From NCBI GenBank assembly GCA_009695045.1, contig SIBS01000001.1, positions 106,942 through 170,941 on the forward strand: a stretch of DNA of 64,000 nt. Reading direction: 5' to 3'. The notes below the pieces were generated by a model. It did no database searches. It was given only the letters and a program-made list of their open reading frames with translations, and was not told where the DNA came from. A program made the translations under genes and the position numbers. Below are positions 42,928-64,000 of the stretch, piece by piece. The stretch comes from Candidatus Levyibacteriota bacterium (GTDB taxonomy: Bacteria > Patescibacteriota > Microgenomatia > Levybacterales > UBA12049). Position 1 is the first letter of the stretch. Each line of letters begins with the position of its first letter.

Positions 42928-44654
42928 AATTATTTTTAAAGCATATAGATAAACCATTATTTTTATTAATCCTAATTACCACTATTGGCGCATTTCTCCG
43001 CTTCTATAAACTTGATTGGGGGAATGGTATTTTCACTCATCCAGATGAATACCATATTATTGCATCTGTAAATCAACTATTCTTTCCTAATCAGATGCAT
43101 CCACATTTTTTTTCATATGGCACATTTACCATTTATTTAATTTATTTAATAAAACAAATATTACTATATCTAGGTTACCATATACAGGATATTAATATAT
43201 TTTTAATTGGACGCTTTTGCTCAGCGATATTTTCAACTCTTACAATAATTATAATTTATAAAATAAGTAGATTTTTCATGAACCAGAGATTCTCGCTTGT
43301 CTCATCTCTACTAGCTGCCTTAACTCCTGGACTTATTCAGCAGGCACATTTTACGACACCTGAATCAAATCTTATTTTTTTCATGCTAGGGACAATTCTA
43401 TTCATTATGTATTTTTTAGAATATAAAAAATTATATTTTATTTTTACATCATCTATATTTCTTGGTTTTTCACTCGGAGTAAAGATCAGTTCAATCGTGC
43501 TATTGGCACCATTAACATTATCTATACTTATTTATTCATTTCAACACAAACTAAAGCCTAACTACGCAAATATTATACAAAAAAAAAGAGCCATAATATA
43601 TTCAGAAATTATACAGAAATCAATTATTATTTTAAGAATACTAATTATTATAATTTCAAAATTTATCGCATTAATTATAGGCAATATATGCATAATATTA
43701 ATTACCTTTGCAATTATTGCACCTTTTGTTTTTATTGATTTTCAGGGATTTATAAACAATTTACAATATGAAGGAGGCCTAGCAATTGATTCTATTCCAG
43801 TTTTCTACACTAGGCAATTTATCCATACATTACCAATTATTTTTCAATTAAATAAAATATTTCCATATGCATTGGGATTTCCACTTCTTTTCCTTGGCAT
43901 TGAAGGATTATTTCTAAGCCTAGTTCGTATAAATGATAAAAGATATCTTATCCTAATAATATCTTTTATTTCTATTTTTATTCCAAATGTATTTTTATTT
44001 ACAAAATGGACTAGATTTATCTCTCCAATCTTTCCATTTTTTTCTATTTTTTCCTGCTTATTTATTGAATTTATTTTTAGAAAAAATAAAAAAATATCTA
44101 TATTATTATTAATAATATTAATTACTACAACGATTATTTGGTCTTATGCATTTTTCTCAATATATCTACGTCCAGACGTAAGAATTGTTGCTTCATCATG
44201 GCTTGAAAAAAATTTACCCAATAATTCAACTATTATGATTGAGGGAGGAAACATGATCGATATTCCTCTGAGTGGCAATTTTAATCGTTCATCATATGAC
44301 TTCTATAATTTTGATTATGATAAACTTACAAGAATGAATATCTATAAAGGACTTGAAAATTCAGATTACTTTATAGTGCAAAGTAGAAGAGTTTTTCTAA
44401 ATCATCAAAGGTCAAGAGTTTATTTCCCGAAAACTGCACATTTTTATGATTTACTTTTTTCTAAAAAACTTGGATTTGAGGAAATTAAAGAGTTCAATTC
44501 ATATCCAATGTTAAGTTTTAATAACTTTAAAATAGAATTTCCTGATGAAAACGCAGAAGAAACATGGAGCGTATTTGATCATCCAGTGATACGAATTTTT
44601 AAAAAAATTAATCATATACAAAAAGAGGGGTTTGCAAAAAAATTTAATGAATAA
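42924..44654 (+). CDS. GT-C fold membrane glycosyltransferase (PMT/ArnT-like) with a C-terminal soluble domain. Paralog A.
   Basis: More than 10 TMs. Loop-1 DE motif (FTHPDEYHII). C-terminal tail ...ETWSVFDHPVIRIFKKI is shared with the next gene. Confidence 0.55.
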   Translation: MKLFLKHIDKPLFLLILITTIGAFLRFYKLDWGNGIFTHPDEYHIIASVNQLFFPNQMHPHFFSYGTFTIYLIYLIKQILLYLGYHIQDINIFLIGRFCSAIFSTLTIIIIYKISRFFMNQRFSLVSSLLAALTPGLIQQAHFTTPESNLIFFMLGTILFIMYFLEYKKLYFIFTSSIFLGFSLGVKISSIVLLAPLTLSILIYSFQHKLKPNYANIIQKKRAIIYSEIIQKSIIILRILIIIISKFIALIIGNICIILITFAIIAPFVFIDFQGFINNLQYEGGLAIDSIPVFYTRQFIHTLPIIFQLNKIFPYALGFPLLFLGIEGLFLSLVRINDKRYLILIISFISIFIPNVFLFTKWTRFISPIFPFFSIFSCLFIEFIFRKNKKISILLLIILITTTIIWSYAFFSIYLRPDVRIVASSWLEKNLPNNSTIMIEGGNMIDIPLSGNFNRSSYDFYNFDYDKLTRMNIYKGLENSDYFIVQSRRVFLNHQRSRVYFPKTAHFYDLLFSKKLGFEEIKEFNSYPMLSFNNFKIEFPDENAEETWSVFDHPVIRIFKKINHIQKEGFAKKFNE

Positions 44655-46332
44655 AAAAGAAAAAATTATACTTCTATTGATTATCTTGCTTGGAACATTT
44701 TTCAGGATATATGGAATTAATTGGGACCAAAATCAACATCTTCATCCAGACGAACGTTTTTTAACAATGGTTACTGAATCAATAAAATGGCCAAATAATA
44801 TTTATGAATATTTTTCAACTGATAGATCTACTCTAAATCCACATAATATGAATTTCTCTTTTTTTATATATGGTACTTTCCCTATTTTTTTAACCAAATT
44901 TCTTTCAGAAATTTTTAAATATACTGATTATAATAGTTTAACTATTTTCGGCAGATTTCTATCTGGATTTTTTGATATTTTAGTAATTATTATTGTTTTC
45001 CTAATTGGAAGAGTTATTTTTTCTATAAGAGCTGGGCTAGCTGCATCTTTTATATACTCAATTAGCGTTTTACCTATTCAACTTTCTCATTTTTATGCAA
45101 CAGATACATTTCTAAATTTTTTTTTAATTTCTAGTTTCTATCTATTAATAAGATATGTCTATTCAAGGAGTTATTTTTGGATAATACCATCTGGAGTAAC
45201 TTACGGAATAGCACTTGCTTCAAAAATAAGTGCAATAACCTATATTTCTTCTTTCATAATTATTTTTTTATTAATAATTAATTTAAAAAAAAGAATATTT
45301 ATATCAATTATTTATTTTTGTTTAATTATTTTTTTAACTTTTAGAATTTTTCAACCATATGCTTTTCTTAATAAAACTTTTTTTAATTTTAATCCAAAAT
45401 TTATTCAAAATTTACAGGAATTAAAATATATGTCTCAACCAGGGTCAACTTTTCCCCCATCTATTCAATGGAATAACACACCTAAAATTATTTTTCCATT
45501 AAAAAATATTATTTTTTGGGGGATGGGTATACCAATTGCAACTACTTCACTATTGGGTATAATATATGCAATATTTATTATCTTTAAAAAAAGAAAAAAA
45601 ATATTTAATAATTTTTGGGGTCAAGATAAAAAAACTATTATAACTATATCTATAATTTCAAATATAATAATAGTTTTTATTTTTCAAAGTATTCAATTCG
45701 TAAAACCTCTCAGGTATTTTATAATTATCTACCCATTACTCTCTATATTATCTGGATTAATAATAAATGATATTTTTAATTTTACGTATAAAAAAAACCC
45801 TAAAATATCAATAGTTTTAGGCTGCATATGGCTTAGCACTCTGATTATTTGGCCATTTTCATTTATTTCCATATATAGAAATAATCACTCTCGAGTCTAT
45901 GCATCTGAATGGATTTATATAAATATTCCACATAAATCAATTCTCGGTATTGAACATTGGGATGATGGACTTCCTCTTAGCCTAGACGTATCAAGAATTA
46001 ATAATTTATATAAATTTGAAGAACTACCCATGTTTAATGCTGACTCAGAAGAAAAATGGCTATCCCTAAATGAAAAATTTGAAAAAATTGATTATATTAT
46101 AATAACTAGCAATAGAGCATATGGATCACTATACAGGTTGCCAGAAAAATATCCTATAACCATTCAGTATTATAAAGATCTATTTAATGATAAATTAAGA
46201 TTCAAAAAAATAGCAGAATTTATATCTAGGCCATCTATTTTTGGCTTTGAATTTATAGACGATAATGCTGATGAAACATTTACTGTTTATGACCATCCAA
46301 GAGTAAGTATATTTAAAAAAATTAAATTATAG
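44632..46332 (+). CDS. GT-C fold membrane glycosyltransferase (PMT/ArnT-like). Paralog B.
   Basis: More than 10 TMs. Loop-1 DE motif (HLHPDERFLT). C-terminal ...ETFTVYDHPRVSIFKKIKL is collinear with paralog A. Confidence 0.55.
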   Translation: MQKNLMNKKEKIILLLIILLGTFFRIYGINWDQNQHLHPDERFLTMVTESIKWPNNIYEYFSTDRSTLNPHNMNFSFFIYGTFPIFLTKFLSEIFKYTDYNSLTIFGRFLSGFFDILVIIIVFLIGRVIFSIRAGLAASFIYSISVLPIQLSHFYATDTFLNFFLISSFYLLIRYVYSRSYFWIIPSGVTYGIALASKISAITYISSFIIIFLLIINLKKRIFISIIYFCLIIFLTFRIFQPYAFLNKTFFNFNPKFIQNLQELKYMSQPGSTFPPSIQWNNTPKIIFPLKNIIFWGMGIPIATTSLLGIIYAIFIIFKKRKKIFNNFWGQDKKTIITISIISNIIIVFIFQSIQFVKPLRYFIIIYPLLSILSGLIINDIFNFTYKKNPKISIVLGCIWLSTLIIWPFSFISIYRNNHSRVYASEWIYINIPHKSILGIEHWDDGLPLSLDVSRINNLYKFEELPMFNADSEEKWLSLNEKFEKIDYIIITSNRAYGSLYRLPEKYPITIQYYKDLFNDKLRFKKIAEFISRPSIFGFEFIDDNADETFTVYDHPRVSIFKKIKL

Positions 46333-46402
46333 ATAGCTATTAATCAAAATATATAATATATAAATATATTTCTACTCATTAAATAGATTTAGATATCAAT
46401 AG

Positions 46403-47164
46403 CTATTTAATCTTTCTTGCTGCAATAAATAAATATGGACCTTTTTTTGTATTTTTTGATGTATTTTGAGAAATAAATTTTACCAATGATTTTAAAAATA
46501 TCGTTTTCTGAGGGAATAAAACCCATCTATTAAAAATTAATTTTGTTATTATAGATGATATACTTAAATAGTGAGAGATATCAAATAATCCAATTATTTT
46601 TTTATTATCTAAATAGTGAGTTGAGTATTTTACCTTATAGCCTAATAAATTTAGTACTGAAGTCCATTTTTTTAAAGAATATAAATTATAATGTTTTGAT
46701 TTTTTTATAAAAAAATTTGAATAAATAGAACCAAATAGTTTTATTCCAAACAAATATTTTGGCCAAATATTTGTTGGTACAGTAAAATACATATTTCCAT
46801 TTTTTTTTAGTACCCTAGCTGACTCTTTAAGAACTTCATCAATATTAGGAATATGTTCAAAGCTTGAATTACAGATAATTGTAGAAAAATAATTATCTGG
46901 AAATGGAATTTTTTTTCCATCATATATTACAATTTTTTTATATACTTTTTTTTCTTTTGCTTCATTAATTTCACTATTTTTAACATCCAAGCCAATATCA
47001 ATTCTTCCAAATGCAATTTTAGCAAAAAATCCATCTCCACAACCAATATCAAGTATTGGTGCATTAAATGGCTTATATTTTTGATACAAAAATACTTCTT
47101 TTGGTCGTAAAAAAGAAAAGAAAATTGGCTTATTTTCTAAAAAATCAATTATGTATTTTTCCAT
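46403..47164 (-). CDS. Class I SAM-dependent methyltransferase
   Basis: Motif I ILDIGCGDGFF and a post-I acidic residue. Length 253 aa. Confidence 0.6.
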   Translation of the reverse strand: MEKYIIDFLENKPIFFSFLRPKEVFLYQKYKPFNAPILDIGCGDGFFAKIAFGRIDIGLDVKNSEINEAKEKKVYKKIVIYDGKKIPFPDNYFSTIICNSSFEHIPNIDEVLKESARVLKKNGNMYFTVPTNIWPKYLFGIKLFGSIYSNFFIKKSKHYNLYSLKKWTSVLNLLGYKVKYSTHYLDNKKIIGLFDISHYLSISSIITKLIFNRWVLFPQKTIFLKSLVKFISQNTSKNTKKGPYLFIAARKIK

Positions 47165-47181
47165 TTTTTTTATTATATCAT

Positions 47182-48315
47182 TTATAAATAAAGTATTTGA
47201 TGAAATTTATTTATTGTTTTTTTAAGAGAGAATATATTTTTAATTTTCTGCCTACTATATATAAATTTATGTTTATTTTTTAAAATATTTACTACTGATT
47301 CCACAATTGAAATAGTACTATTAGTTTTTATTAACATGCCCATTCCCGATAGCTGTATGGGGACCCTAACGCCTGGAATATTTGTTGCAACAACGGGAAC
47401 ACCACAATACATAGCTTCAACCTGAACCATACCAAAACTTTCAGTAGAATTGATGCTCGGCAATACTAAAACATCTATAACTGAAAAAAAAGAACCTACT
47501 TCTTTATTTTGCAATGCTCCAATGTAGGTAATATTTTTTTCAAATTTCTTTATCAGTTTTTTTATATATAAATTATATTCTTCTTCTCCGTTTAAATTAT
47601 TTGGTCCAGAAATAAGAATCGTAAAATTATTTCCTATTTTTTTAATAAAATATGGGACTGCTTTTAATAAATAATTTAATCCTTTTTCAGATGATATTCG
47701 ACCCAAGAAGCCAATTACATATTTTTTTTTAAAAAATTTATTACTTATCTTTCGTACGGTAATTTTACTAATTCTTGGTGATATTATAGGTGGAATTATA
47801 TATTCAATTTTTTTTAGAAAAAATTTAAGAACTGTCGAATTAACAGCAAAATCATTTGTATTTGTAATTATTTTATCAGATAAAAAACAGACGATAATAT
47901 TAATTAAAATTAATATTATTTCAATAATTTTATTTATTAATCCATCGGCAAGTTTTAATTCACATTGATATATGCAATATATTTTTTTCCTTAAAATTTT
48001 TGCTAAAAATACTGTTACTATTGATTCCGCCTGTGGCAAATGAATAATTACTATATCGCATAATAATAATTGATTAATTACATAAATAGGGTATGAAAAC
48101 ATAATAAATCCTTTATGAAGTTTAAAAGAATATGGAACCCTTATCAAGATAACGCCATTAATATAATCTAGTATTGAAAGATTTTTTTCATGCTGAGAGG
48201 TAAGAATATTTATATTAAATCCTTTTTTTACCAATTCTTCTGCTAGATTTTTTGTATAAATACTAAGACCACTTATGTATGGATAATAATATGTAAGTGT
48301 TATTAGAATTTTCAT
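47182..48315 (-). CDS. GT-B fold glycosyltransferase, family 4 (GT1/GT4 type)
   Basis: The C-terminal EX7E region (ESFGMVQVEAMYCGVPVV) and an N-terminal MKILITLTYYYPYISG are typical of GT4. The start is placed at the internal Met because the longer ORF would overlap the divergent HAD gene. Confidence 0.7.
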   Translation of the reverse strand: MKILITLTYYYPYISGLSIYTKNLAEELVKKGFNINILTSQHEKNLSILDYINGVILIRVPYSFKLHKGFIMFSYPIYVINQLLLCDIVIIHLPQAESIVTVFLAKILRKKIYCIYQCELKLADGLINKIIEIILILINIIVCFLSDKIITNTNDFAVNSTVLKFFLKKIEYIIPPIISPRISKITVRKISNKFFKKKYVIGFLGRISSEKGLNYLLKAVPYFIKKIGNNFTILISGPNNLNGEEEYNLYIKKLIKKFEKNITYIGALQNKEVGSFFSVIDVLVLPSINSTESFGMVQVEAMYCGVPVVATNIPGVRVPIQLSGMGMLIKTNSTISIVESVVNILKNKHKFIYSRQKIKNIFSLKKTINKFHQILYL

Positions 48316-48340
48316 ATGGTAATGATATAATGCATTATAT

Positions 48341-48880
48341 ATGAAAATTGGATTTGATCTAGATGGAGTTTTCATAAATAAACCATACTTTATTCCAAAA
48401 TATATTATTGAAAGACTTTATAGAACTGGAGAAAAAGTTTTAAACTATCGATTTCCAAATAATTTTGAGATATTGATTCGTAAGATTTCTCACAATCCCA
48501 TATTCCGCTCTAAAATTAAAGATAATATTAAATTCATAAATGAATTATCTAGAACAAAAAATAGTCTTTTTCTTATCTCAAGTCGTTTTAGTTTTTTAAA
48601 AAAAGAGACTGAGGAATTAATTATATATAATGGATTTAATAAAATTTTTAAAGGGATTTATATTAATTATCTTAATGCTCAACCACATATTTTTAAAGAT
48701 GAAGTTATAAAAAAAAATAAAATAAATATTTATATAGATGATGATTTTTTACTTATTAAATTTTTGGCAAAAGAAAATAAGCAAACAAAATTTTATTGGC
48801 TAAATAAAAATATTAATAAAAAGATTACAAAAAATCTACTTGCAATAACTAAATTATCGTATATAATACTTTCTCTATGA
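48341..48880 (+). CDS. HAD-superfamily-like hydrolase (putative sugar-phosphate phosphatase)
   Basis: N-terminal MKIGFDLDGV (DxDG motif I) and a C-terminal DDD region. Length 179 aa. Confidence 0.4.
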   Translation: MKIGFDLDGVFINKPYFIPKYIIERLYRTGEKVLNYRFPNNFEILIRKISHNPIFRSKIKDNIKFINELSRTKNSLFLISSRFSFLKKETEELIIYNGFNKIFKGIYINYLNAQPHIFKDEVIKKNKINIYIDDDFLLIKFLAKENKQTKFYWLNKNINKKITKNLLAITKLSYIILSL

Positions 48881-51021
48881 CTATCCTTGATTTTCTTACG
48901 ATAATTCAATGGTGGTCGATTCTTTTTTTATTAGGAGTTATTTTTATCCCAATTACTCAGACAATTTTTTCTTCTTTCTTTGATAAAGGATATGTATTTT
49001 CTAAAGTTATCGGATATTCAGTTTTATCATATGTTATGTTTTTATTATCTATCCTTCATTTTATTCATTTTACTTTTATATCACTACTTTTTATTTTATT
49101 TAATTTAATTATTTTTAATTTTTTAGTGGCAAAAAAAACAAGAACATGGACTTCAATAAGTAGATTAATTCCTCTTTTTATAGCAGAAGAGTTAATTTTT
49201 ATTCTTTGTCTTATTTCATGGTCATTTATAAGAGGGACTCAGCCGGAAATAATAGGTCTAGAAAAATTTATGGATTTTGGATTTGTTAATAGTATCTTAC
49301 GAAGCGAATACTTTCCTCCAAAAGATATGTGGCTTACTCCATATAGCATCAACTATTATTATTTTGGACACCTTATTACAGCTGTATTAACAAAAATTTC
49401 ATTAATAAATCCTAGCATTACTTATAATCTTATGATTGCAACTCTTTTTTCACTCTGCTTTACTCTTTCTTTTTCCTTAGGAACAACTCTTTGCTATCAT
49501 GCTTTTTTAATAAAAAAGGGTGTAATTATAAAAGCAAAAACGCTTTTTTCTTCAGGAATAATTACCGCATTTTTATTAACTCTATCCGGAAACCTACATA
49601 CCATATACTCATTATTTCTTCCGTATACACATGGTTATCCAATTCCAATTGGTGAACTTATTTTTTCTATTAATAATTTTCCAAATCGATATTGGTATCC
49701 AGATGCTACCCGATTTATTTATAATACTATTCATGAATTTCCTATTTATTCATTTGTTGTATCCGATCTACATGGACATGTCATAGATATTCCAATAGTA
49801 ATTACAATAATAGCTATTTTATTGAATGTTTTTTTAATAAAATCTGTTAATAATTATAAACTTATTATTTTAGGATTCTTTATTGCAATTGCCTTCATGT
49901 CTAACGTATGGGATTCATTAATATATTTTTTATTAATAAGCATTTTTATATTTTTGATTGATATTGATAAAAATTATTTGAATATCAATAATTTATTTAA
50001 ATCTGGTAAAAATATATTTATTGTATTTATAACTTTTTTATTATTCTCTTTTCCCTTTTCTTATTATTTTGAACCAAGCTCCTTAGCTCATGGAATTGGT
50101 ATTCTTTGTGCTCCCAAATTTTTAACAGATATTTCCCGTATCGGCCCTTTTTTATTTGAAATCAATCATTGTCAAAAGTCCCCATTTTATCAACTAGCTA
50201 CATTATATGGATTTTTTTATTTTTGGGTTTTATGTTTTTTAGGTTTTCTTTTTATCAAAAGGAGCATTAGGAAAACAGATATTTTTGTACTAATTATTAT
50301 TGGACTAAGCACGATATTAATTATTGTCCCTGAGTTTATCTATATTAAAGATATTTACCCAAATCACTATAGGGCTAATACTATGTTTAAGCTTGTTTAT
50401 CAATCTTTTATTATGCTTTCAATTTCATCATCTTATATCATGATAAGAATCTTGCACTCAGTAAAAAATAACATTGATTATTTTTATAAAAAAGTTATTT
50501 TATTTTTATGTATTATTCTAGGATCATGTCTTATATTAATAGTTAGTGCTTATCCATTTTTTGCAATTCCTTCTTTTTATGGAAAACTTGACTATAAAGG
50601 GCTTGATGGAATCAAATATCTAAAAAAATCATATCCCGATGATTATGAATCAATATTATGGATAAACAAAAATATCAAAGGTCAACCGGTCATACTTGAA
50701 GCACAAGGAGATTCATATACGGAATATGCAAGAATCTCATCAAATACGGGACTTCCTACCTTGCTTGGATGGACAGTCCACGAATGGTTATGGCGAGGAT
50801 CATATGATATCCCATCTCCACGCATTGTGGAAATTAAAAACTTATATGAATCAAATGATATAAGTATAGTAAAAAAATTAATTAAAAAATATTCCATAGC
50901 TTATGTTTTTATTGGATCGCTTGAAAAAAGAAAATATATTAATCTTAATGAAAAAATATTTAATAAATTAGGATTTATTATTTTTAATAAAAAGGGGTCA
51001 AAAATTTACAAAATCTATTAA
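48877..51021 (+). CDS. Giant polytopic membrane protein of the Chlor_Arch_YYY / DUF2298 type (putative GT-C-like glycosyltransferase)
   Basis: 714 aa with more than 15 TMs, a YYY motif (PYSINYYYFGHLI) and a C-terminal extracytoplasmic domain (GLPTLLGWTVHEWLWRG). Confidence 0.5.
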   Translation: MTILDFLTIIQWWSILFLLGVIFIPITQTIFSSFFDKGYVFSKVIGYSVLSYVMFLLSILHFIHFTFISLLFILFNLIIFNFLVAKKTRTWTSISRLIPLFIAEELIFILCLISWSFIRGTQPEIIGLEKFMDFGFVNSILRSEYFPPKDMWLTPYSINYYYFGHLITAVLTKISLINPSITYNLMIATLFSLCFTLSFSLGTTLCYHAFLIKKGVIIKAKTLFSSGIITAFLLTLSGNLHTIYSLFLPYTHGYPIPIGELIFSINNFPNRYWYPDATRFIYNTIHEFPIYSFVVSDLHGHVIDIPIVITIIAILLNVFLIKSVNNYKLIILGFFIAIAFMSNVWDSLIYFLLISIFIFLIDIDKNYLNINNLFKSGKNIFIVFITFLLFSFPFSYYFEPSSLAHGIGILCAPKFLTDISRIGPFLFEINHCQKSPFYQLATLYGFFYFWVLCFLGFLFIKRSIRKTDIFVLIIIGLSTILIIVPEFIYIKDIYPNHYRANTMFKLVYQSFIMLSISSSYIMIRILHSVKNNIDYFYKKVILFLCIILGSCLILIVSAYPFFAIPSFYGKLDYKGLDGIKYLKKSYPDDYESILWINKNIKGQPVILEAQGDSYTEYARISSNTGLPTLLGWTVHEWLWRGSYDIPSPRIVEIKNLYESNDISIVKKLIKKYSIAYVFIGSLEKRKYINLNEKIFNKLGFIIFNKKGSKIYKIY

Positions 51022-56413: not shown

Positions 56414-58012
56414 ATGCAAAAAATATTAAATAGAATTGAAAAAATACATATACTTTATATTGTAATTTTTTTATTTTCACTTTCATTTATTTCATACGGA
56501 AATACTTTGGGAAACAGCCTCTTCTTCGATGATGAAGATTTTATTTATAAAAATATTTACGTTCAGAAATTTTCCATCGTAGATATATTTACTCACAATC
56601 TTATCGCTGGTGCAGGAAAAATAAGCAATTATTATCGTCCAGTATTATCCATCATATATTCTATTATTTATAGTATTTCCATGGACAATGGTATGCTTTA
56701 TCATCTTGCTGGAATCATTTTACATGCTGGTACTGGAACTGCTCTATTTTTATTATTAAAAAAAATGTTTTCATCTACTGGAATAGCGCTTATTTCATCG
56801 GTGATTTTTATTATCCATCCAATAAATACAGAGGCTGTAGCATATGCATCTGGAATAAATGATCCATTATCTTCTCTCTTTATGATTTCTACAATAATTA
56901 TTTCATTAGGCAACAATAAATACAAAAAAATTATCTCTGCATTTTTATTTACCATCGCACTTCTAAGCAGGGAGACTGCCATCATTACTCCAGCACTCAT
57001 ATTTATAATTTTTCTTTTCGAAACAAAATCTATAAAAGAAACATTTATAAAAACAAAAAGCATAATACCTCTTATAATTATCGCGCTATTATATTTTTTA
57101 CTAAGATTAACTATTCTTAATTTTCAGAATACTTTAAATTTTTTTCCTGTTGCAACGGCATATTCTACAAATATTATATTTAGAGTATTAACTTTTTTTT
57201 CTATTATTCCTGAATATATTGCACTTATTTTTTTTCCAAAGACATTAAACATTGAACGGGAAGTTCCAGTAGTAATTTCATATTTTTCCAAAATATCTTT
57301 TTTTATAATAATTATGCTTATTGGTATCTTTGATCTATGTCTAAAATATTTCAATAAATATCCCGTATTTCTTTTCTCTTTTTTATGGTTTTTTATAACT
57401 ATCTCGCCAACAATGGGAATCATTCCAATCAATGGAATAATGTATGAACATTTTCTATATTTATCATCGATTGGTATTTTTTTACCATTTTCTTTTTGTT
57501 TTATAACTGTTTTAAAAAAGATTTCAAATAAATCTGCCATTTTAATTACTTTCTTATTATTGATATTTTTAATTGGACTCATCATTAGAACTATTAATCG
57601 AAATAATGACTGGAATAATCCAATAACTTTCTATACACAAACTATAAAAATAAATTCAAATAGTGCAAGATTGCATAATAATTTAGCAATGGCTTTTGCA
57701 GAAAATAAACAAAATAAAGAAGCGATTAAGGAATATAAAGAAGCAATTAGAATAAATGATATCTATGCAGAGACACATTTCAACCTTGCTAATTCTTATG
57801 TGGGCATAAATGATTTGAAAAATGCTGAAGCAGAATATAAAAAAGCCCTAGAAATAAATCCTCTTTTTTTACGAGGATATACAAATCTTGTTTCACTTTA
57901 TAAATATCAAAAAAGGAATAAAGATAAAGAAGAAATAATAAAATATGTAAATAAAATAGCAGAAAAAAATAAAGAGATATTACCATTCATAAAGTATCTT
58001 AAGGGTTTATAA
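56414..58012 (+). CDS. GT-C-like polytopic membrane protein with C-terminal TPR repeats (TMTC/DUF1736-like putative O-mannosyltransferase)
   Basis: About 11 TMs. Loop-1 acidic motif FFDDEDFIY. C-terminal TPR repeats (AMAFAENKQNKEAIKEYKEAIRIND..., FNLANSYVGINDLKNAEAEYKKALEINP). Confidence 0.5.
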   Translation: MQKILNRIEKIHILYIVIFLFSLSFISYGNTLGNSLFFDDEDFIYKNIYVQKFSIVDIFTHNLIAGAGKISNYYRPVLSIIYSIIYSISMDNGMLYHLAGIILHAGTGTALFLLLKKMFSSTGIALISSVIFIIHPINTEAVAYASGINDPLSSLFMISTIIISLGNNKYKKIISAFLFTIALLSRETAIITPALIFIIFLFETKSIKETFIKTKSIIPLIIIALLYFLLRLTILNFQNTLNFFPVATAYSTNIIFRVLTFFSIIPEYIALIFFPKTLNIEREVPVVISYFSKISFFIIIMLIGIFDLCLKYFNKYPVFLFSFLWFFITISPTMGIIPINGIMYEHFLYLSSIGIFLPFSFCFITVLKKISNKSAILITFLLLIFLIGLIIRTINRNNDWNNPITFYTQTIKINSNSARLHNNLAMAFAENKQNKEAIKEYKEAIRINDIYAETHFNLANSYVGINDLKNAEAEYKKALEINPLFLRGYTNLVSLYKYQKRNKDKEEIIKYVNKIAEKNKEILPFIKYLKGL

Positions 58013-58205: not shown

Positions 58206-58280
58206 TCCGTGATAGCTCAACGGTAGAGCAGGTCGCTGTTAACGACAAGGTTCTAGGTTCGAATCCTAGTCGCGGAGCCA
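58206..58280 (+). tRNA. tRNA-Asn (anticodon GTT), CCA-encoded
   Basis: Manual fold: acceptor TCCGTGA/TCGCGGA (one G-U pair), D-stem GCTC/GAGC, anticodon loop CTGTTAA, T-arm CTAGG-TTCGAAT-CCTAG, discriminator G, then CCA. Confidence 0.85.
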
Positions 58281-59726
58281 GAGTTGATTATCTGCGTAAT
58301 TTAGTATTGTATCAAAGGGTTTTAGCCCGTCATATCGGACTAATTTACCTTCTACTCTAAGATTCGATAGTACGAGCTTGATTAACTGCCTTCTTTCCTC
58401 AACTTCCGAACTTTTGAAAAGCTCGTAAGCCCGATTTGACAGTTCTAACAGGTATTTAGCCGTGATGTAGTAGTTGTCTTCGGCTTCTTGTAGCATAGCA
58501 AGACGAGTATCAATATCTGCTATTTGCTCACGGAAGGACTGATAAAACTTGTCATACTCATCGTCAGTAATACGCCCTTTGAGCTTATCCAAGTAAAGAT
58601 TATCCATCATATTTGTAATAGTTGCGTGTTCTTTGGTTAATTTTTCGAATTGCTTATTGTGAAAGTCCATCTTGTCTTGGTGTACTGTGTTTAGGTTTTC
58701 AACTATTTGCTCCAAAACCCAATCGGGAAGCTGTAGACGCTTGAATACATTGCCTACCTGCTCGGTTATAGTGTCCTCTCGTAGCCACTGTGCCCCATGT
58801 TTGCCGTTGTATTGCGTACAATGGTAATAAATAATTCCCTTGTGCTTTTCAGGAGTTATAGAAAGCCCACAATGCCCGCATCTTAGTAATCCTCGGTACA
58901 TATAAGATAAGCCTGCAAACTTATATCTCTTTTTATTAAACCCTGCTTTTATTTTTTGAACTTGGTCAAATAAGGCTTTGGTAATAATAGGTGGGTATTT
59001 GTGAGGATATAACTTTTTATTCCATACCATCATGCCATAGTAAAACGGGTCTTTGAGGTATTTATCGGTAAGACCATGAGACCAATCAACTCCATATTCT
59101 TCTTTTAACTTCTTGCGTAATAAATCCATTGAAAAACTGCCCGTTGCATACCATTCGTAGGCTTTTTGGATTATGCGAGAGGCAAGCTCGTCAACTACTA
59201 TTTCAGTTTTGTCCTTGCTTATAGGAACTCGTTTATATCCATACGAGGGCTTGCTGGGATATGTACCCATTCTTAGCATTTGTTCTTGTGCCCTTTTTAC
59301 ATTGTCGCTAATAGCGTCAGAGTAGTATTTTGCAAGACCAAGGCTAATACTGAAATTAAACTTTTCAACTGCGGATAACTGGCTATTGATAACTTGTCCG
59401 TCTGATACAAAGTGAAGTTCTACCTCATCTTTTAGGGCTTTATCGTATAGCGTAGAAACCCGTTTATCAAAAATGTTACGGGATAATCTATCTACCTTGT
59501 CAAAGCAAACTGCTATTTTTTCTTTTTGGTCAAGAACAAAATCAAGGATACTGTCAAAATCACTACGCTGGGTTTTATATGCACTTTCATCAAAACTAAA
59601 CTCTTTAAGTATTTCAAAGTTTTTATTTTGACCATACTTCTTCATTCTAGCCAATTGAGCAGGTAGCGAGTTATTGGCTTCTTTTTGTTCTTCTGTTGAT
59701 ACCCTAGCTATTATTATTGCTTTCAT
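58266..59726 (-). CDS. Large serine recombinase (resolvase/invertase-type N-terminal catalytic domain, recombinase domain, zinc ribbon)
   Basis: N-terminal AIIIARVSTEEQ (catalytic Ser) and DRLSR. A C-terminal Cys cluster (LRCGHCG...YYHCTQY) and a coiled coil. The stop codon lies inside the tRNA-Asn 3' end (15-nt overlap). Confidence 0.85.
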   Translation of the reverse strand: MKAIIIARVSTEEQKEANNSLPAQLARMKKYGQNKNFEILKEFSFDESAYKTQRSDFDSILDFVLDQKEKIAVCFDKVDRLSRNIFDKRVSTLYDKALKDEVELHFVSDGQVINSQLSAVEKFNFSISLGLAKYYSDAISDNVKRAQEQMLRMGTYPSKPSYGYKRVPISKDKTEIVVDELASRIIQKAYEWYATGSFSMDLLRKKLKEEYGVDWSHGLTDKYLKDPFYYGMMVWNKKLYPHKYPPIITKALFDQVQKIKAGFNKKRYKFAGLSYMYRGLLRCGHCGLSITPEKHKGIIYYHCTQYNGKHGAQWLREDTITEQVGNVFKRLQLPDWVLEQIVENLNTVHQDKMDFHNKQFEKLTKEHATITNMMDNLYLDKLKGRITDDEYDKFYQSFREQIADIDTRLAMLQEAEDNYYITAKYLLELSNRAYELFKSSEVEERRQLIKLVLSNLRVEGKLVRYDGLKPFDTILNYADNQLWLRD

Positions 59727-59731
59727 TTTTA

Positions 59732-62700
59732 TTATGAATAATTTCTTGTTCCCTTACAGTAGGGAAACCTTGAACAACCGTAAAACTTTCCACGACGACC
59801 ATTTCGAAGAATCATAGGGGAATTACAGCGTGGGCAGGCTGTGTCAGTTAGAATAGGCGCTGGTCTTGGTGCAGATGTTGTTTGGTAGACACTGATATTT
59901 TTACATTTGTTACAAAACCTTCCGTAACCAGTAATTAAAGATGCGTCTTTAAAATCACTTGTTGACCTCACCTCTTTGCATTTGGGGCACTCTCTCATAT
60001 CTCCATTTTGTAATCCCTCAATCGTCCCATGTATGTTTTGGAGAAGAGAGTTAGCATTTTCTGGGTTTTTGAGTAAGTTTCCAATCCTATCATCAATGCT
60101 CGCTATCGGATTTTGTCCGCTATTAAATTTATTAATTCGCAAGAACTTATATCCGTAACTCTCTAATACTTTTTGACGATATACGTCATCATCGGAATAA
60201 TAATCCTTATAGTTAAACTCGTTTACTTCATCAACTTCTTTGAAGTGCTCTTGAAAACCATCATATTCAATAATGATTTTGTGTTCTTTGTGACGCTCGT
60301 CGGTGTAGATAAGAAGAAAATCAACCTTGTAGGCTGGATGTGTATATGTACGGTCTAATTGTTTGAGATATTTGCCTATTTCAAATTGGGGCATAAACTC
60401 AATAGAATTTTTATGTTCTTTCCAAAAATTTGTTTGATAAAACCAATTCAAAACTTCTGGTTCCATCTTGGACTTTTCATCAACCTCTGAAACAGAATGC
60501 TCTTTTCGAGCTTCCTCTAACATATACTGGTAATGTCTCAACGCCTCTCCTGCAGAGCCTGTAAAGTCTTCAAGGGGCTTACTTAATACAAAATGAACAC
60601 ACTCCTTGGCACGACTAAAGCCAACGTTCAAACGCTGTGCTTTTATCTGACCGTCCTCTTCAACATCAACATTGCTTAAATCTTTGATGAACACGCCCCA
60701 AAGCTTGTCACTGTGGGTAGATGCGACCATTGAATAGTAGATAACATCACGCTCTTCACCTTGGCACGTATCAAAAGTCATTATCTTGAGTTGCAATTTG
60801 TCTTGAAAATAATCCCATTCTGGCATTTTGCCTATCATTTCTACTAACAGCTTCTGTTGATTTGTATGCGGTGTAATAATGCCAACGCTTATTGCCTTAT
60901 CTTCATCTTTTAGTCGTTTTAGTTCAGAAACAATAAACTCAACCTCTTTAGCATTGGTATTAGGATAAAGCTCATCGGCAGAAGTGGCCTTAACATGTGA
61001 GAACTTAATAACCTCATCTATGGATTTCCCACGAATTTTCATTACCTGCAAACTATCTTGGTAGAAATACTTATTCGAATAAGAGATGATTTCCTTATAA
61101 CCTCTAAAATGTTTTAGTAATTGGATGTTGTAATTACTGATGAACCCAAAAAACTCGAGGATGGAGGTTTTAATGTTAAATTTATGCAGCCTCTCTAATT
61201 TGATTGCATCAGTGGAAATGTTAGCTCTAAAGCTAGTATTTAGTCCATTGAGGTATTCACGATTAGTATCGCCTCTTGCTTGTGCAGCTTTGATGTTGCT
61301 AAATTGTTTTTTATCTCCAAGAATAAGCACTTTTTTTGCTCGCAAGAGAGCAGGGAATGCTTGCGCTATGCTTACTTGCGACGCTTCATCAATTACTACT
61401 AAATCAAATAGCTCTGGCTCTAGGGGAATATATTCTGCGTAGTCTCGTATGCCCGCTAAAATACATGGGAACGCTTCTTTAAGCTTCTTGAACTCTTCCC
61501 TTGGAAATCTCTGTTTTTTTTTAATGATATTGCGTAATGTTTGAGCGTCACTACTATTATGTTCGTAGAAATCAATTAACCGTCCGTCAAGAAGATATGT
61601 TACTTGAGTTGTAACCAAATCTTCAATTTGTTTCATGCGAGCTGCGTAATTTAGCTCGTGGATATTAGAAAAATCTCTACTCACTTTTTGGTTTAAGTTC
61701 AAATATCTTATTTGCTTATCAAACTCCAATTCAACAGTGTCTATGACAGCGTTACTAGTTATCGTAGTGAATTGTTCAGCGTTGATACCTATTTTTTTAG
61801 CTGTTTTTGGATATTTCCCAATGGTTTCTTTGATGTACTTGATGTCTTCGTCCAAGGCAATGATTGTCTCGACTGTCTGCATTATTGTCTCGTCCGTAAG
61901 GAGTTTGTGAGCAAGTGCTATGTAGTCAAAATTCCTCCTGCTTTTTTCGTTTATCTCATCACCAAATTTTTGAGCCGAGTCCAAAATTTCGTGTGCATCT
62001 TTCAGCTCTTGGAGCTGGTCGTGAGGGATGGAGAACGTGCTGTGAATAAAATTTTTCTTGAAACTTACATCTAGTTTCTCTGCTTGTTTTTTACTGAATA
62101 AATAACCGATTGCCCAAAGCTTCATTTTTGAATACTTTTGAATGAAGTGTTCGAGTTCTTGCAAGTCCTTTGAAGTAAATTGTGTGAATTTATTTACAGC
62201 AGCAATTTTGTTTGAGAAGGTCGTTTTTATTTTTTGGATGCCTTCAATTGCCAATGCCAAGAATTGTAAGAAGCTTTCGTAATCAGAGAGCGTTTTTATG
62301 GTCTTTGGATTTAAGGCTAGAAGCTCAAACAGTTTCATCGTTTTGTTAGAAGTGAGCGTGTTTTTGATTTGCCGTAACGAACCTCGCAAGTCTCCAAATT
62401 CAATGGCAGATTCGTTATGTTGTGATAGCTCTTCTATGTCGAAGATTAAATCTTTCTCATTAAAATAAAGTTCTAAATCAAAAAACTCCTGAATTTCTTT
62501 AATGTTTATATCGCTGTAAGCGACAATCTCGGCCTCGATGTCTTCTCTTAAAGAATTGCCAGACTTTGTAATTGTTTCTTCTATCGAATCGTAATCTCTT
62601 TTTACCGCGCGATGGTGTGTTTTAATTCCTTCAATGGCGCTTTGAGCAAGAATTGAATTATATGTATTGCCAGTTTTACCAAGTCTTAGAATTGGGTTTT

Positions 62701-64000
62701 GAAAATTTTTATCATAGCGAACCTTATTCATTGTCTGAGTAATCTTGTCTTCAACAACGTCCAAGGCCTCTTTTTTGTCAGAAAGAACCAATACTGACTG
62801 ATTTTTCAAGATTGCATCAAAAATTATTGCTGTAATAGTGTGACTTTTTCCAGTTCCTGGTGGCCCTGAAACTACCAGATAATTACAGCCGTCTTTACGA
62901 ATAGCAGACAAGATTTGACGCTGTTCGCTATTGAGTGGGATTGGACTTGAATACACAAGCCTATCTGGCGTTTCAGTGTTATCCCATTCATCTTCAACTT
63001 CTGGGTTAGAAGTTTCAGGATTGTTTCGGATAAAGTCATCTATCAGCTTATTGAAGATTTCTGCAAGGTTACCCCCTTCTTGCATTAACTGTTGCAGAAT
63101 TTCCTCGTAGTCATTTACTAATGCTTCATCTGACTTATCGAACAAGCAGATATAATTGCTATTAGAAATTCGTACTGATGCCCCTCGGGCAGTTATCGGT
63201 TCCCCATTTGAGAAGTCTACTGTATCTTCAAGCTCAAAAAAATGAGAGAGTTCATTTAATATGCCATTGATAATTTGAGGAAAATCTTCCTGATGTTGAG
63301 ACAAATACACAATGCGCTCCGAGATGGTTTGTAAACTGCCTTTTGTTCCTTTTATTGCATTATGTTCTTGTACGATAAACTCAAGCGCTTTTTTATTTAT
63401 GTACACCTGTGAATCAAATTCTATATTTAGGGTGTCTCCATCCCTTGTGGTCGCAAAAGGAATATAGAAAATTGGGTATTTATTGTTGTTGAAAGATATG
63501 TCACCAAAATACAGATAAAAGTCCTGCTTGTCTAAAATAGTTTTATTGCGCTCCATTTCAAATAATTCCAGAAACAAATCAGCCACTTGGAGGTTTTCAA
63601 AAAATGAAGTAAGGTTGCCTTTTACATCTTGAGGTACAAAAACAGATTTGAGTTCTTTTGTAAGGTTAACCTTTTCTTGAGCGATAATGAGATTTAATAC
63701 TTCTGAAATCTTGTTTTCTAACAAACGAAGGATTACTGATGTTAGCTCTTCCTCAATCAGATATACGTTATCTTCATCACCTAAATTAAGATTTTGTAGA
63801 GGTTTTTCGATGCTTTCGACGAACGGATGAACGAGTTCACTGCGGATAATTTTTGTAGCTTCTTCTACAGAATTTGTAAGCGCTACATCATATTCTTTTG
63901 CATATAAAGTACCTGCTTTTTCTATCTCACTGGCGACCTGTTCAGTAATTGCGTTAATTTCTGCAGTGCTAATCTTACTAACTTGAAGTTTTATTAAATC
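59732..64000 (-). CDS. Giant multidomain protein (>1422 aa, N-terminus beyond the window): DUF4011-like region, Upf1/DNA2-type SF1 helicase, DUF559/Vsr-like (REase_MTES_1575-like) endonuclease-fold domain, and two topoisomerase-type C4 zinc ribbons. Candidate Nhi-like nuclease-helicase.
   Basis: The ORF track begins at an internal TTG. Manual translation of 63725-64000 shows the frame stays open to the edge (...DEDNVYLIEEELTSVILRLLENK...). Walker A VVSGPPGTGKSHTI. Motif II VVIDEASQ plus GDKKQ. QGEERDVIY and VGFSRAKE (AAA_12-like). VDFLLIY...IIIEYDGFQEH...YGYKFLRI (DUF559-like). CPRCNSPMILRNGRRGKFYGCSRFPYCKGTR (zf-C4_Topoisom-like). Confidence 0.8.
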   Translation of the reverse strand, partial: DLIKLQVSKISTAEINAITEQVASEIEKAGTLYAKEYDVALTNSVEEATKIIRSELVHPFVESIEKPLQNLNLGDEDNVYLIEEELTSVILRLLENKISEVLNLIIAQEKVNLTKELKSVFVPQDVKGNLTSFFENLQVADLFLELFEMERNKTILDKQDFYLYFGDISFNNNKYPIFYIPFATTRDGDTLNIEFDSQVYINKKALEFIVQEHNAIKGTKGSLQTISERIVYLSQHQEDFPQIINGILNELSHFFELEDTVDFSNGEPITARGASVRISNSNYICLFDKSDEALVNDYEEILQQLMQEGGNLAEIFNKLIDDFIRNNPETSNPEVEDEWDNTETPDRLVYSSPIPLNSEQRQILSAIRKDGCNYLVVSGPPGTGKSHTITAIIFDAILKNQSVLVLSDKKEALDVVEDKITQTMNKVRYDKNFQNPILRLGKTGNTYNSILAQSAIEGIKTHHRAVKRDYDSIEETITKSGNSLREDIEAEIVAYSDINIKEIQEFFDLELYFNEKDLIFDIEELSQHNESAIEFGDLRGSLRQIKNTLTSNKTMKLFELLALNPKTIKTLSDYESFLQFLALAIEGIQKIKTTFSNKIAAVNKFTQFTSKDLQELEHFIQKYSKMKLWAIGYLFSKKQAEKLDVSFKKNFIHSTFSIPHDQLQELKDAHEILDSAQKFGDEINEKSRRNFDYIALAHKLLTDETIMQTVETIIALDEDIKYIKETIGKYPKTAKKIGINAEQFTTITSNAVIDTVELEFDKQIRYLNLNQKVSRDFSNIHELNYAARMKQIEDLVTTQVTYLLDGRLIDFYEHNSSDAQTLRNIIKKKQRFPREEFKKLKEAFPCILAGIRDYAEYIPLEPELFDLVVIDEASQVSIAQAFPALLRAKKVLILGDKKQFSNIKAAQARGDTNREYLNGLNTSFRANISTDAIKLERLHKFNIKTSILEFFGFISNYNIQLLKHFRGYKEIISYSNKYFYQDSLQVMKIRGKSIDEVIKFSHVKATSADELYPNTNAKEVEFIVSELKRLKDEDKAISVGIITPHTNQQKLLVEMIGKMPEWDYFQDKLQLKIMTFDTCQGEERDVIYYSMVASTHSDKLWGVFIKDLSNVDVEEDGQIKAQRLNVGFSRAKECVHFVLSKPLEDFTGSAGEALRHYQYMLEEARKEHSVSEVDEKSKMEPEVLNWFYQTNFWKEHKNSIEFMPQFEIGKYLKQLDRTYTHPAYKVDFLLIYTDERHKEHKIIIEYDGFQEHFKEVDEVNEFNYKDYYSDDDVYRQKVLESYGYKFLRINKFNSGQNPIASIDDRIGNLLKNPENANSLLQNIHGTIEGLQNGDMRECPKCKEVRSTSDFKDASLITGYGRFCNKCKNISVYQTTSAPRPAPILTDTACPRCNSPMILRNGRRGKFYGCSRFPYCKGTRNYS

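Follow-up and report, generated by a model that had tools for sequence, protein, structure and literature searches.

Serine integrases are major tools of genome engineering and are thought to avoid tRNA genes, the rule being that tyrosine integrases are found at tRNA genes and serine integrases at protein genes. Attachment sites (att) placed inside the integrase gene itself are known from tyrosine recombinases: the SSV-type integrases of archaeal viruses carry attP within the int gene and target a tRNA gene, and intP of the Myxococcus phage Mx8 is a second case of attP within a tyrosine integrase gene. Mageeney et al. 2020 (PMC7192596) refer to serine integrases as 'not known for targeting tRNA genes': tRNA genes account for 4.9% of cases, none of them proven, and for the 14 of 297 cases found the authors requested experimental proof. 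The word tRNA is absent from the main text of the survey of large serine recombinases (LSRs) by Durrant et al. 2022. Here we describe a locus in Candidatus Levybacteria (Patescibacteria) at which an island of about 14.2 kb was probably integrated by an LSR into the 3' acceptor strand of a tRNA-Asn gene. The locus lies at the end of a stretch of 64,000 nucleotides (nt) of contig SIBS01000001.1, hereafter the window, whose coordinates are used throughout unless a different contig is named.

An acquired island at the 3' end of tRNA-Asn

The features that define the junction are as follows.

58206-58280, plus strand: intact tRNA-Asn(GTT) gene with encoded CCA, the attL junction (ARAGORN; Rfam RF00005, 65 bits; acceptor-stem pairs taken from the sequence itself)
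58266..59726, minus strand: LSR gene in its integrated (attL) form, 486 amino acids (aa), with the Pfam domains Resolvase PF00239, Recombinase PF07508 and Zn_ribbon_recom PF13408
58281..58322, minus strand: putative element-side att arm, also coding LSR residues 469-482 (KPFDTILNYADNQL), with a fixed 42-nt spacing to the tRNA end
58274..58278, no strand assigned: putative recombination core GGAGC, tRNA positions 70-74, from the comparison of attL and attR in relatives
58277..64000, no strand assigned: the part of the island inside the window, identical to contig L095 and continuing there to window-equivalent position ~72,475

This tRNA is the single one called by ARAGORN in the whole window, and the LSR gene converges on it from the opposite strand with a 3' overlap of 15 nt. 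The C-terminal codons TGG CTC CGC GAC TAG (WLRD*) are the reverse complement of tRNA bases 58266-58280, with the tryptophan codon corresponding to CCA, such that LSR residues 1-483 are encoded by the element while the tail LRD* derives from the antisense tRNA. An earlier note on this DNA, made from the letters alone, had reported this placement of the last 15 nt and the stop inside the tRNA 3' end, and the coordinates of the open reading frame (ORF) and the tRNA sequence agree with it; it had further proposed that a foreign element with a serine rather than a tyrosine integrase sits at this end and has re-created it.

Comparison with near-identical strains, akin to the comparison with related genomes lacking the insertion that the same note had suggested, bears directly on that proposal and introduces two further features.

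56414..58012, plus strand: last host gene before the insertion site, encoding a 532-aa membrane/TPR protein (TPR Pfam matches)
L003 11853-17880: element B, present in other strains at the same host site as window position 58266 onward

The 532-aa host protein is unchanged on 18 public contigs, some of which carry the island described here (element A) and some element B; NCBI assigns this protein, like the LSR, to Candidatus Levybacteria. Six of the 18 match the window with 99.67-99.98% identity as far as base 58280 exactly and share no homology with it beyond; four of these six continue into element B, which differs from element A from the first base past CCA. Element B encodes a 508-aa LSR, a 62-aa ORF, Phage_rep_O, a 96-aa ORF and a 918-aa protein. 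The LSRs of the two elements are 32% identical over their full length, and both end in ...Q-x-W-L-R-D* in the same frame inside the tRNA. Because near-identical strains (99.7% up to 58280) carry different elements from one and the same base, the site is polymorphic and the island was acquired and is not ancestral, judged by the criterion that the note itself had set. The proposal of a foreign element brought in by a serine integrase is thereby borne out, as it is by the recurrence of the same geometry at 63 of 78 related loci (below), and the 15-nt overlap also appears to be more than the chance run-in of an ORF. Separately, next to element B in L003 comes a remnant of 72 aa in which the C-terminus of an A-type LSR is fused to element B's own tail (LTLASTFRTFEW...AYQQA*).

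A change in composition coincides with the tRNA end, as the earlier note had also observed. In 400-nt windows the GC content is 0.21-0.26 at 57.0-58.2 kb versus 0.37-0.42 immediately after the tRNA, although this step in total GC is overstated because the host stretch at 44-58 kb is unusually AT-rich; at the 2-kb scale the whole window ranges from 0.23 to 0.37, and the island, at 0.36-0.38, falls inside the upper range of host 1-2-kb windows. GC at third codon positions (GC3) is the cleaner measure here: 41 host ORFs have a mean of 0.194 (standard deviation (sd) 0.035, maximum 0.298) versus 0.360 for the LSR and 0.352 for the adjacent helicase gene, placing the island 4.5 sd over the host mean, and CGN codons make up 58% of arginine codons in the island versus 42% in the host. 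With these values the jump in GC and codon usage stands. Within the host sequence, the lowest GC of the window (0.23-0.25 at the 2-kb scale) occurs at 44000-50000, near genes for a glycosyltransferase, DUF2298, LytR and FemAB, and the first 36 kb lie at 0.30-0.35; this segment may itself be a variable region, possibly related to the cell envelope.

The recombinase

The domain set, the catalytic residues, the fold and the brevity of the att identity all identify the enzyme as a bona fide LSR, with recombination activity as the prediction. The PF00239 match (E = 3.5e-18) covers residues 3-154, the catalytic residues R8, S10, D79, R80 and R83 are invariant in alignment A1 of 43 homologues, and C283, C286 and C303 are likewise invariant in an alignment of homologues. 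A sequence search of the PDB gave a match limited to the catalytic domain. The AlphaFold2 model of homologue P0052, which combines an A-type LSR with an ENRN-type tail (see below), has a mean predicted local distance difference test score of 81.6, with 68-74 in the C-terminal region; it contains long paired helices at residues 335-414 that form a coiled coil in the Zn-ribbon domain, as well as a helix that begins at the motif KPFD and crosses the junction, followed by a second helix. Foldseek returned a probability of 1.0 for the match of this model to 9dxd, 9iu2 (Bxb1), 4kis and phiC31 complexes. No tyrosine integrase (Phage_integrase) is present among the gene calls of the 14-kb island, in which the LSR is the only recombinase.

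Recurrent placement at tRNA 3' ends in two phyla

More than 2150 homologues of the LSR were found at E <= 1e-20, the best 120 of which are 64-89% identical to it. The C-termini of these 120 carry KPFDxILNxxDxQx, then W-L-P-R-E-D-S-N-L-E-P and variants of it, which is the translated antisense 3' end of a tRNA, with TGG corresponding to CCA and GAT TCG AAC to the T loop. The length classes of 486, 493, 495 and 517-520 aa arise because the stop falls at differing places in the antisense tRNA. Throughout this clade of hundreds of species, the gene always crosses the junction and enters the antisense tRNA in one and the same frame. A profile scan with one genome per species identified 313 relatives, and the best 79 of these 313 loci were examined for geometry, with 78 primary loci; they come from Levybacteria, Woesebacteria, Pacebacteria and Roizmanbacteria within the Patescibacteria as well as from Dependentiae/Babeliales. 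An opposite-strand tRNA 3' end lies 41-44 nt past the first base of the KPF codon in 63 of the 78 primary loci, the offset being 42 nt in 59 loci and 41 or 44 nt in two each. Targets in these 63 loci are tRNA-Asn (21, and 2 more that contain introns and were miscalled as other tRNAs), Asp (12), Arg (11), Glu (10) and Gln (7). LSRs more than 90% identical occur in several hosts at tRNA-Asn genes whose acceptor stems differ, a sign of recent transfer between hosts.

In the full-text literature, for the most part outside subscription journals, we found no prior account of tRNA-targeting serine recombinases in Patescibacteria, Dependentiae or the candidate phyla radiation, nor of an attP within a serine integrase gene. 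Small cargo-carrying islands with a serine integrase aimed at the final bases of a tRNA thus apparently form a widespread and undescribed class.

Two observations on these loci stand apart from their geometry. The targeted tRNA-Asn genes of L058, L012, L013, L022 and L077 carry 184-257-nt insertions in the anticodon loop, which in L058 (11495-11681) is a group I intron (Rfam RF00028, 67 bits), and such intron-bearing genes are missed or miscalled by ARAGORN outside its intron mode. In addition, many third-party annotation records of metagenome-assembled genomes (L014, L016, L019, L022, L027-L029 and others), titled 'uncultured Gammaproteobacteria/Pseudomonadota/Pseudomonadales' and in one case 'Pedobacter sp.', carry elements of Patescibacteria or Dependentiae type, which probably reflects mistaken taxon labels or mis-binning of contigs.

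A short putative recombination core at the acceptor end

Comparison of attL with attR at more than 40 loci shows an identity of just 5-8 nt. The sequence of this core varies with the target tRNA: G CTCC(CC) for Asn, TGG CGG for Asp, TGG CTG for Gln, TGG CGT for Glu and TGG TGT for Arg(tct). The Asn set limits the core at the left, where the two preceding bases differ, and the other sets limit it at the right, so that their intersection comprises tRNA positions 71-74. Since 71/72 is the only dinucleotide in this interval that is non-palindromic in all five target classes, we infer that the crossover dinucleotide is 58275-58276 (positions 71-72).

With a crossover at this point, the element arm would supply G73 and C74-A76 (CCA) to the rebuilt tRNA, and it is because the arm would provide the discriminator base and CCA that the tRNA could stay intact without a long repeat. 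The interpretation that the element re-creates the tRNA end is supported in this form. As a check, the earlier note had proposed to look for the last ~26 nt of the tRNA as a direct repeat marking the far att site, but this cannot work, as no such repeat is present in the window or its 14-kb extension: a single copy of the 25-nt tRNA 3' segment exists in the window and in each locus, with no second copy in the extension. Since 2 bp of identity suffice for the enzyme, and the stretch common to attL and attR is 5-8 nt, a direct-repeat test has nothing to detect. As judged from the base triplet at the far junction, the native tRNA gene of most Asn hosts lacked an encoded CCA. The predicted attB is ...GTCGCGGAGCCA-AGTTGTCAATGTATTAGCGGAAAG, and the predicted attP is ...GATAATCAACTC-TGGCTC-GAGAATCGTAAC....

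An orphan tail at the far end of related elements

In tandem arrays (L011, L015, L082, L077), the frame of an upstream LSR runs on past its junction and into the distal part of the element that follows, which exposed a conserved far-end motif. On the LSR strand this motif is LPLV(N/D)xF(K/R)NREIEFGFSLQNIQTVFETFQ(I/L)QPAYA*, and in most loci it lies upstream of the LSR at a distance of 3.9-10.9 kb, with diverged forms in Dependentiae; these elements are 3.9-10.9 kb long. The sequence bears the marks of a coding region. The peptide is kept between Patescibacteria and Dependentiae while the DNA diverges, the ratio of nonsynonymous to synonymous variation (pN/pS) is 0.33 for 16 Asn-type tails and 0.46 for 31 tails versus 0.95-0.97 for the 30 upstream codons in the same frame, entropy per codon position follows the order 3 > 1 > 2, and the frame always closes 30-45 codons past the core. 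LSR and tail share one frame at every contiguous junction seen, both in arrays and in short remnant ORFs such as P0123 (...NCSDRQLW-LPLVDMFKNQEIEFGFSLANIQTVFQTFEIQPSYA).

From this coding signature and the unbroken frame at junctions, we infer that the LSR ORF crosses attP in the circular form. In an excised circle the ORF would run over attP into the orphan tail to give a protein of about 520 aa, and integration would detach the tail, thereby splitting the integrase gene and leaving an integrated copy that ends in tRNA-antisense residues (WLRD* here). That the tail belongs to the integrase in the circular form is in our judgement reasonably probable. A role of the tail in directionality is a more tentative suggestion, as is the idea that the detached C-terminal exon could act as a state sensor, with only a circle or an inner array member encoding the ~520-aa integrase. 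On a speculative note, the exchange of C-termini together with the adjacent excisionase-like HTH_17 protein might tune the direction of recombination.

A search for a full-length LSR-plus-tail protein with a chimeric query returned short remnants only. Among the short forms are ORFs of 110-147 aa in chromosomal contexts (L092 10001-10438, L093 1113-1445, L094 211-543), in which the last ~95 residues of an LSR are fused in frame to a tail; these are probably remnants of decayed array members, and their frequency leads us to wonder whether some are expressed. Tails of FRxxxW type that do not derive from tRNA were considered as a far-end motif of A-type elements and rejected, as the upstream search gave known junctions only and these are the tails of other LSR subtypes at arrays.

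Extent and gene content of the island

The earlier note had the element running past the window edge, and this is confirmed by a 14,253-bp contig from a different sample (L001/L095) that is 100% identical to window positions 58251-64000 and extends the island to window-equivalent ~72,475. From the tRNA, the gene order is the LSR, a 1516-aa superfamily 1 (SF1) helicase with a Zn ribbon, the HTH_17 protein, a 372/379-aa protein, SpoVG and a 53-aa ORF, followed by a 270-aa ORF, a 109-aa protein resembling the DinD C-terminus, a 916-aa protein, a 2-hydroxyacid dehydrogenase and an ankyrin protein. At the far junction, which this contig places about 14.2 kb from the tRNA, the LSR strand reads ...LSANTLTT-W-L-ENRNSNITTQLACIFKTFEDFRLVAQIREEIEKVKPSLAFTTL*, i.e. 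TGG CTC followed by a diverged tail homologue (L095 14224-14229), and this tail type (ENRNSNITT...) is one read by the LSRs of L025 and P0052. Of the two ends of the L001/L095 contig, one lies 30 nt inside the tRNA and the other 24 nt past TGG; if these contigs were assembled with k = 31, as we presume, the assembly graph branches exactly at both junctions (SRR31412735). The 24-nt flank past the far junction has no match in the fetched loci, the window or the JGI metagenomes.

One cargo gene falls largely within the window.

59732..64000, minus strand: cargo gene for the 1516-aa SF1 helicase with a C-terminal topoisomerase-type Zn ribbon (Pfam AAA_11, AAA_12, Zn_ribbon_Top1)

Its first 94 codons lie beyond the window edge and the full-length gene is found on L001/L095. 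Partial matches to PDC-S37, MkoA/C, Hhe and ProA suggest a defence-like cargo. Across the family, the 53-aa ORF, SpoVG, the 372/379-aa protein, HTH_17, a cargo slot and the LSR form a conserved backbone in which the slot between HTH_17 and the LSR varies: L058 carries a restriction-modification-like methyltransferase, a specificity/PDC-S13 protein and an 843-aa protein, L011 carries HARE-HTH, and the slot of L012 is empty. L077 (5266-9995) has the helicase and HTH_17 of the window island at 90-91% identity while its neighbouring LSR is only 62% identical, which points to a recent exchange of modules between elements.

The 372/379-aa protein (L001 4125-5264) is present in 57 fetched loci from both Patescibacteria and Dependentiae and is a candidate for a function in element replication or regulation; a guess that the 379-aa form is a rolling-circle initiator was dropped for want of support, with no family match. 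The ~916-aa protein occurs in both island types (L095 9343-12093, window-equivalent ~67.6-70.3 kb; L003 14962-17718) at 61-64% identity and has 35 homologues, one of them labelled Woesearchaeota. Neither protein has a match in Pfam, PHROGs, NCBIfam or PADLOC. The minimal element of L012 (223-5947, 5.7 kb) has a PseudoU_synth_2 (RluA-like) gene and a 468-aa ORF between the orphan tail and the SpoVG module. With respect to phage or conjugative functions, island genes have no PHROG structural matches and no capsid, terminase or tail genes, no relaxase or type IV secretion genes occur among the island's Pfam annotations (oriT was not searched for), and the IMG/VR viral contigs contain no relatives of the elements, whether close or by profile query.

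Weighing the explanations

Integration of the ~14.2-kb island by its LSR into the tRNA-Asn acceptor strand is the explanation we consider likely, and several points weigh against it or against parts of it. We recovered neither an empty attB nor a circular attP contig with a full-length LSR, and the contiguous LSR-tail junctions are those of arrays or remnants. The exact crossover dinucleotide is a prediction from the non-palindrome argument. The pS values are near saturation, and constraint on the att arm as DNA could inflate the apparent purifying selection on the tail. The far end is taken from another sample's contig, identical over the shared 5.75 kb, and not from the window's own record; its flank past the junction amounts to only 24 nt. 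The canonical LPLV tail is absent from the window, L001 and L095, the far junction carrying the diverged ENRNSNITT... tail in its place, and the island may be a composite of two elements that is no longer mobile as a unit. A more radical departure would see in the recombinase a resident of the genome, whether invertase, resolvase or relic, whose convergence on tRNA-Asn is accidental, as are the overlap and the GC step. The absence of a long tRNA repeat and an island GC of 0.36-0.38, within the upper range of host 1-2-kb windows, are what such a gene would lead one to expect, yet we give this idea almost no credence in view of the different element that begins after base 58280 in strains 99.7% identical up to there, the fixed offset to the tRNA end (mostly 42 nt) at 63 of 78 loci in two phyla, and a GC3 4.5 sd above the host. 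It is also very improbable that the island is a prophage or conjugative element of which the LSR is the ordinary integrase: LSRs are typical of temperate phages and integrative conjugative elements, and element B does carry a Phage_rep_O gene, but genes for capsid, terminase, tail, relaxase or type IV secretion are absent from those of the island, the elements measure merely 3.9-10.9 kb, and IMG/VR holds no relatives, the profile query included.

The remaining alternatives concern what has become of the island and what its tail is for. The 14-kb island might be a decayed composite in which an A-type element was fused to the distal part of another and is now fixed and immobile, a possibility that arises because the LPLV tail is missing from an otherwise A-type backbone and the 916-aa gene is common to the unrelated element B (61-64% identity). 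The far junction has a different tail type, which other LSRs also read, and arrays and remnants are common at such sites. Against decay stand the intact LSR, HTH_17 and core genes, the branching of the assembly graph at both predicted junctions in SRR31412735 (given the presumed k = 31), and the presence of LSRs more than 90% identical in several hosts. On balance we regard the composite as possible but somewhat doubtful, and it is compatible with LSR-mediated integration as the explanation of the island's arrival. The other alternative accepts integration as proposed and takes the tail for a DNA binding site within the att arm, in which case the 486-aa attL form is complete and nothing is split. 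Arms of att sites are expected to be conserved as DNA, the integrated form of the LSR is intact and conserved across hundreds of species, and no circular contig bears a full-length LSR-plus-tail gene. A typical LSR att half-site measures ~25 bp, however, whereas the tail reaches 90-135 nt from the core; its pN/pS is 0.33 versus 0.97 in the control, with variability at third positions, the stop always falls 30-45 codons along it, the peptide is kept across Patescibacteria and Dependentiae despite divergence of the DNA, and at array junctions its frame continues that of each upstream LSR. A purely DNA-level role of the tail thus seems unlikely to us.

Implications

If LSR-mediated integration is correct, a clade represented in 313 species-level genomes from two little-studied phyla makes systematic use of tRNA 3' ends, solves the problem of tRNA regeneration with just 4-5 nt and provides a counter-example to the division between tyrosine and serine integrases outlined at the outset. 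The five tRNA targets with their matching changes in the att core amount to a data set of natural LSR retargeting, and such a series over five tRNA species could guide the engineering of LSR specificity. The enzymes are likewise candidate integration tools for Patescibacteria and Dependentiae, which now lack genetic tools. A split integrase gene would be a possible new control of recombination direction; if it is real, the topology of the element would set its competence for integration or excision, a form of directionality control undescribed for serine integrases. For annotation, the consequence is that repeat-based island finders will miss such elements.

Comparison with described systems

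The enzyme shares its domains, coiled coil, catalytic serine and arginine residues and fold with the described serine integrases (phiC31, Bxb1, Listeria A118/LI, TP901-1, SCCmec CcrAB, XisF), and the att identity is very short in both, in keeping with a 2-bp crossover. Unlike those systems, the target here is the acceptor end of a tRNA, and the LSR ORF would cross attP and have its C-terminus exchanged on integration. With the tyrosine-integrase islands at tRNA genes (Islander/TIGER, P4-like), the locus has in common the 3' insertion, the integrase beside the tRNA, the tRNA regenerated by the element and the tandem arrays; in contrast to them, it has no tyrosine integrase, ~4-5 nt are regenerated and not tens, and no displaced tRNA fragment is left. 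The only idea shared with SSV-type integrases is an attP inside the integrase gene, which is proposed here from the frame and coding signature of the tail; unlike SSV-type enzymes and Mx8, the recombinase is of the serine type, is found in Patescibacteria and Dependentiae, and would have only its last ~35 codons detached. Finally, a small conserved backbone with a swappable cargo position recalls the small defence-carrying islands that resemble satellites or integrative mobilizable elements, although this backbone, with its SpoVG-like and 372/379-aa proteins, matches none of the described families of satellites, phages or integrative mobilizable elements.

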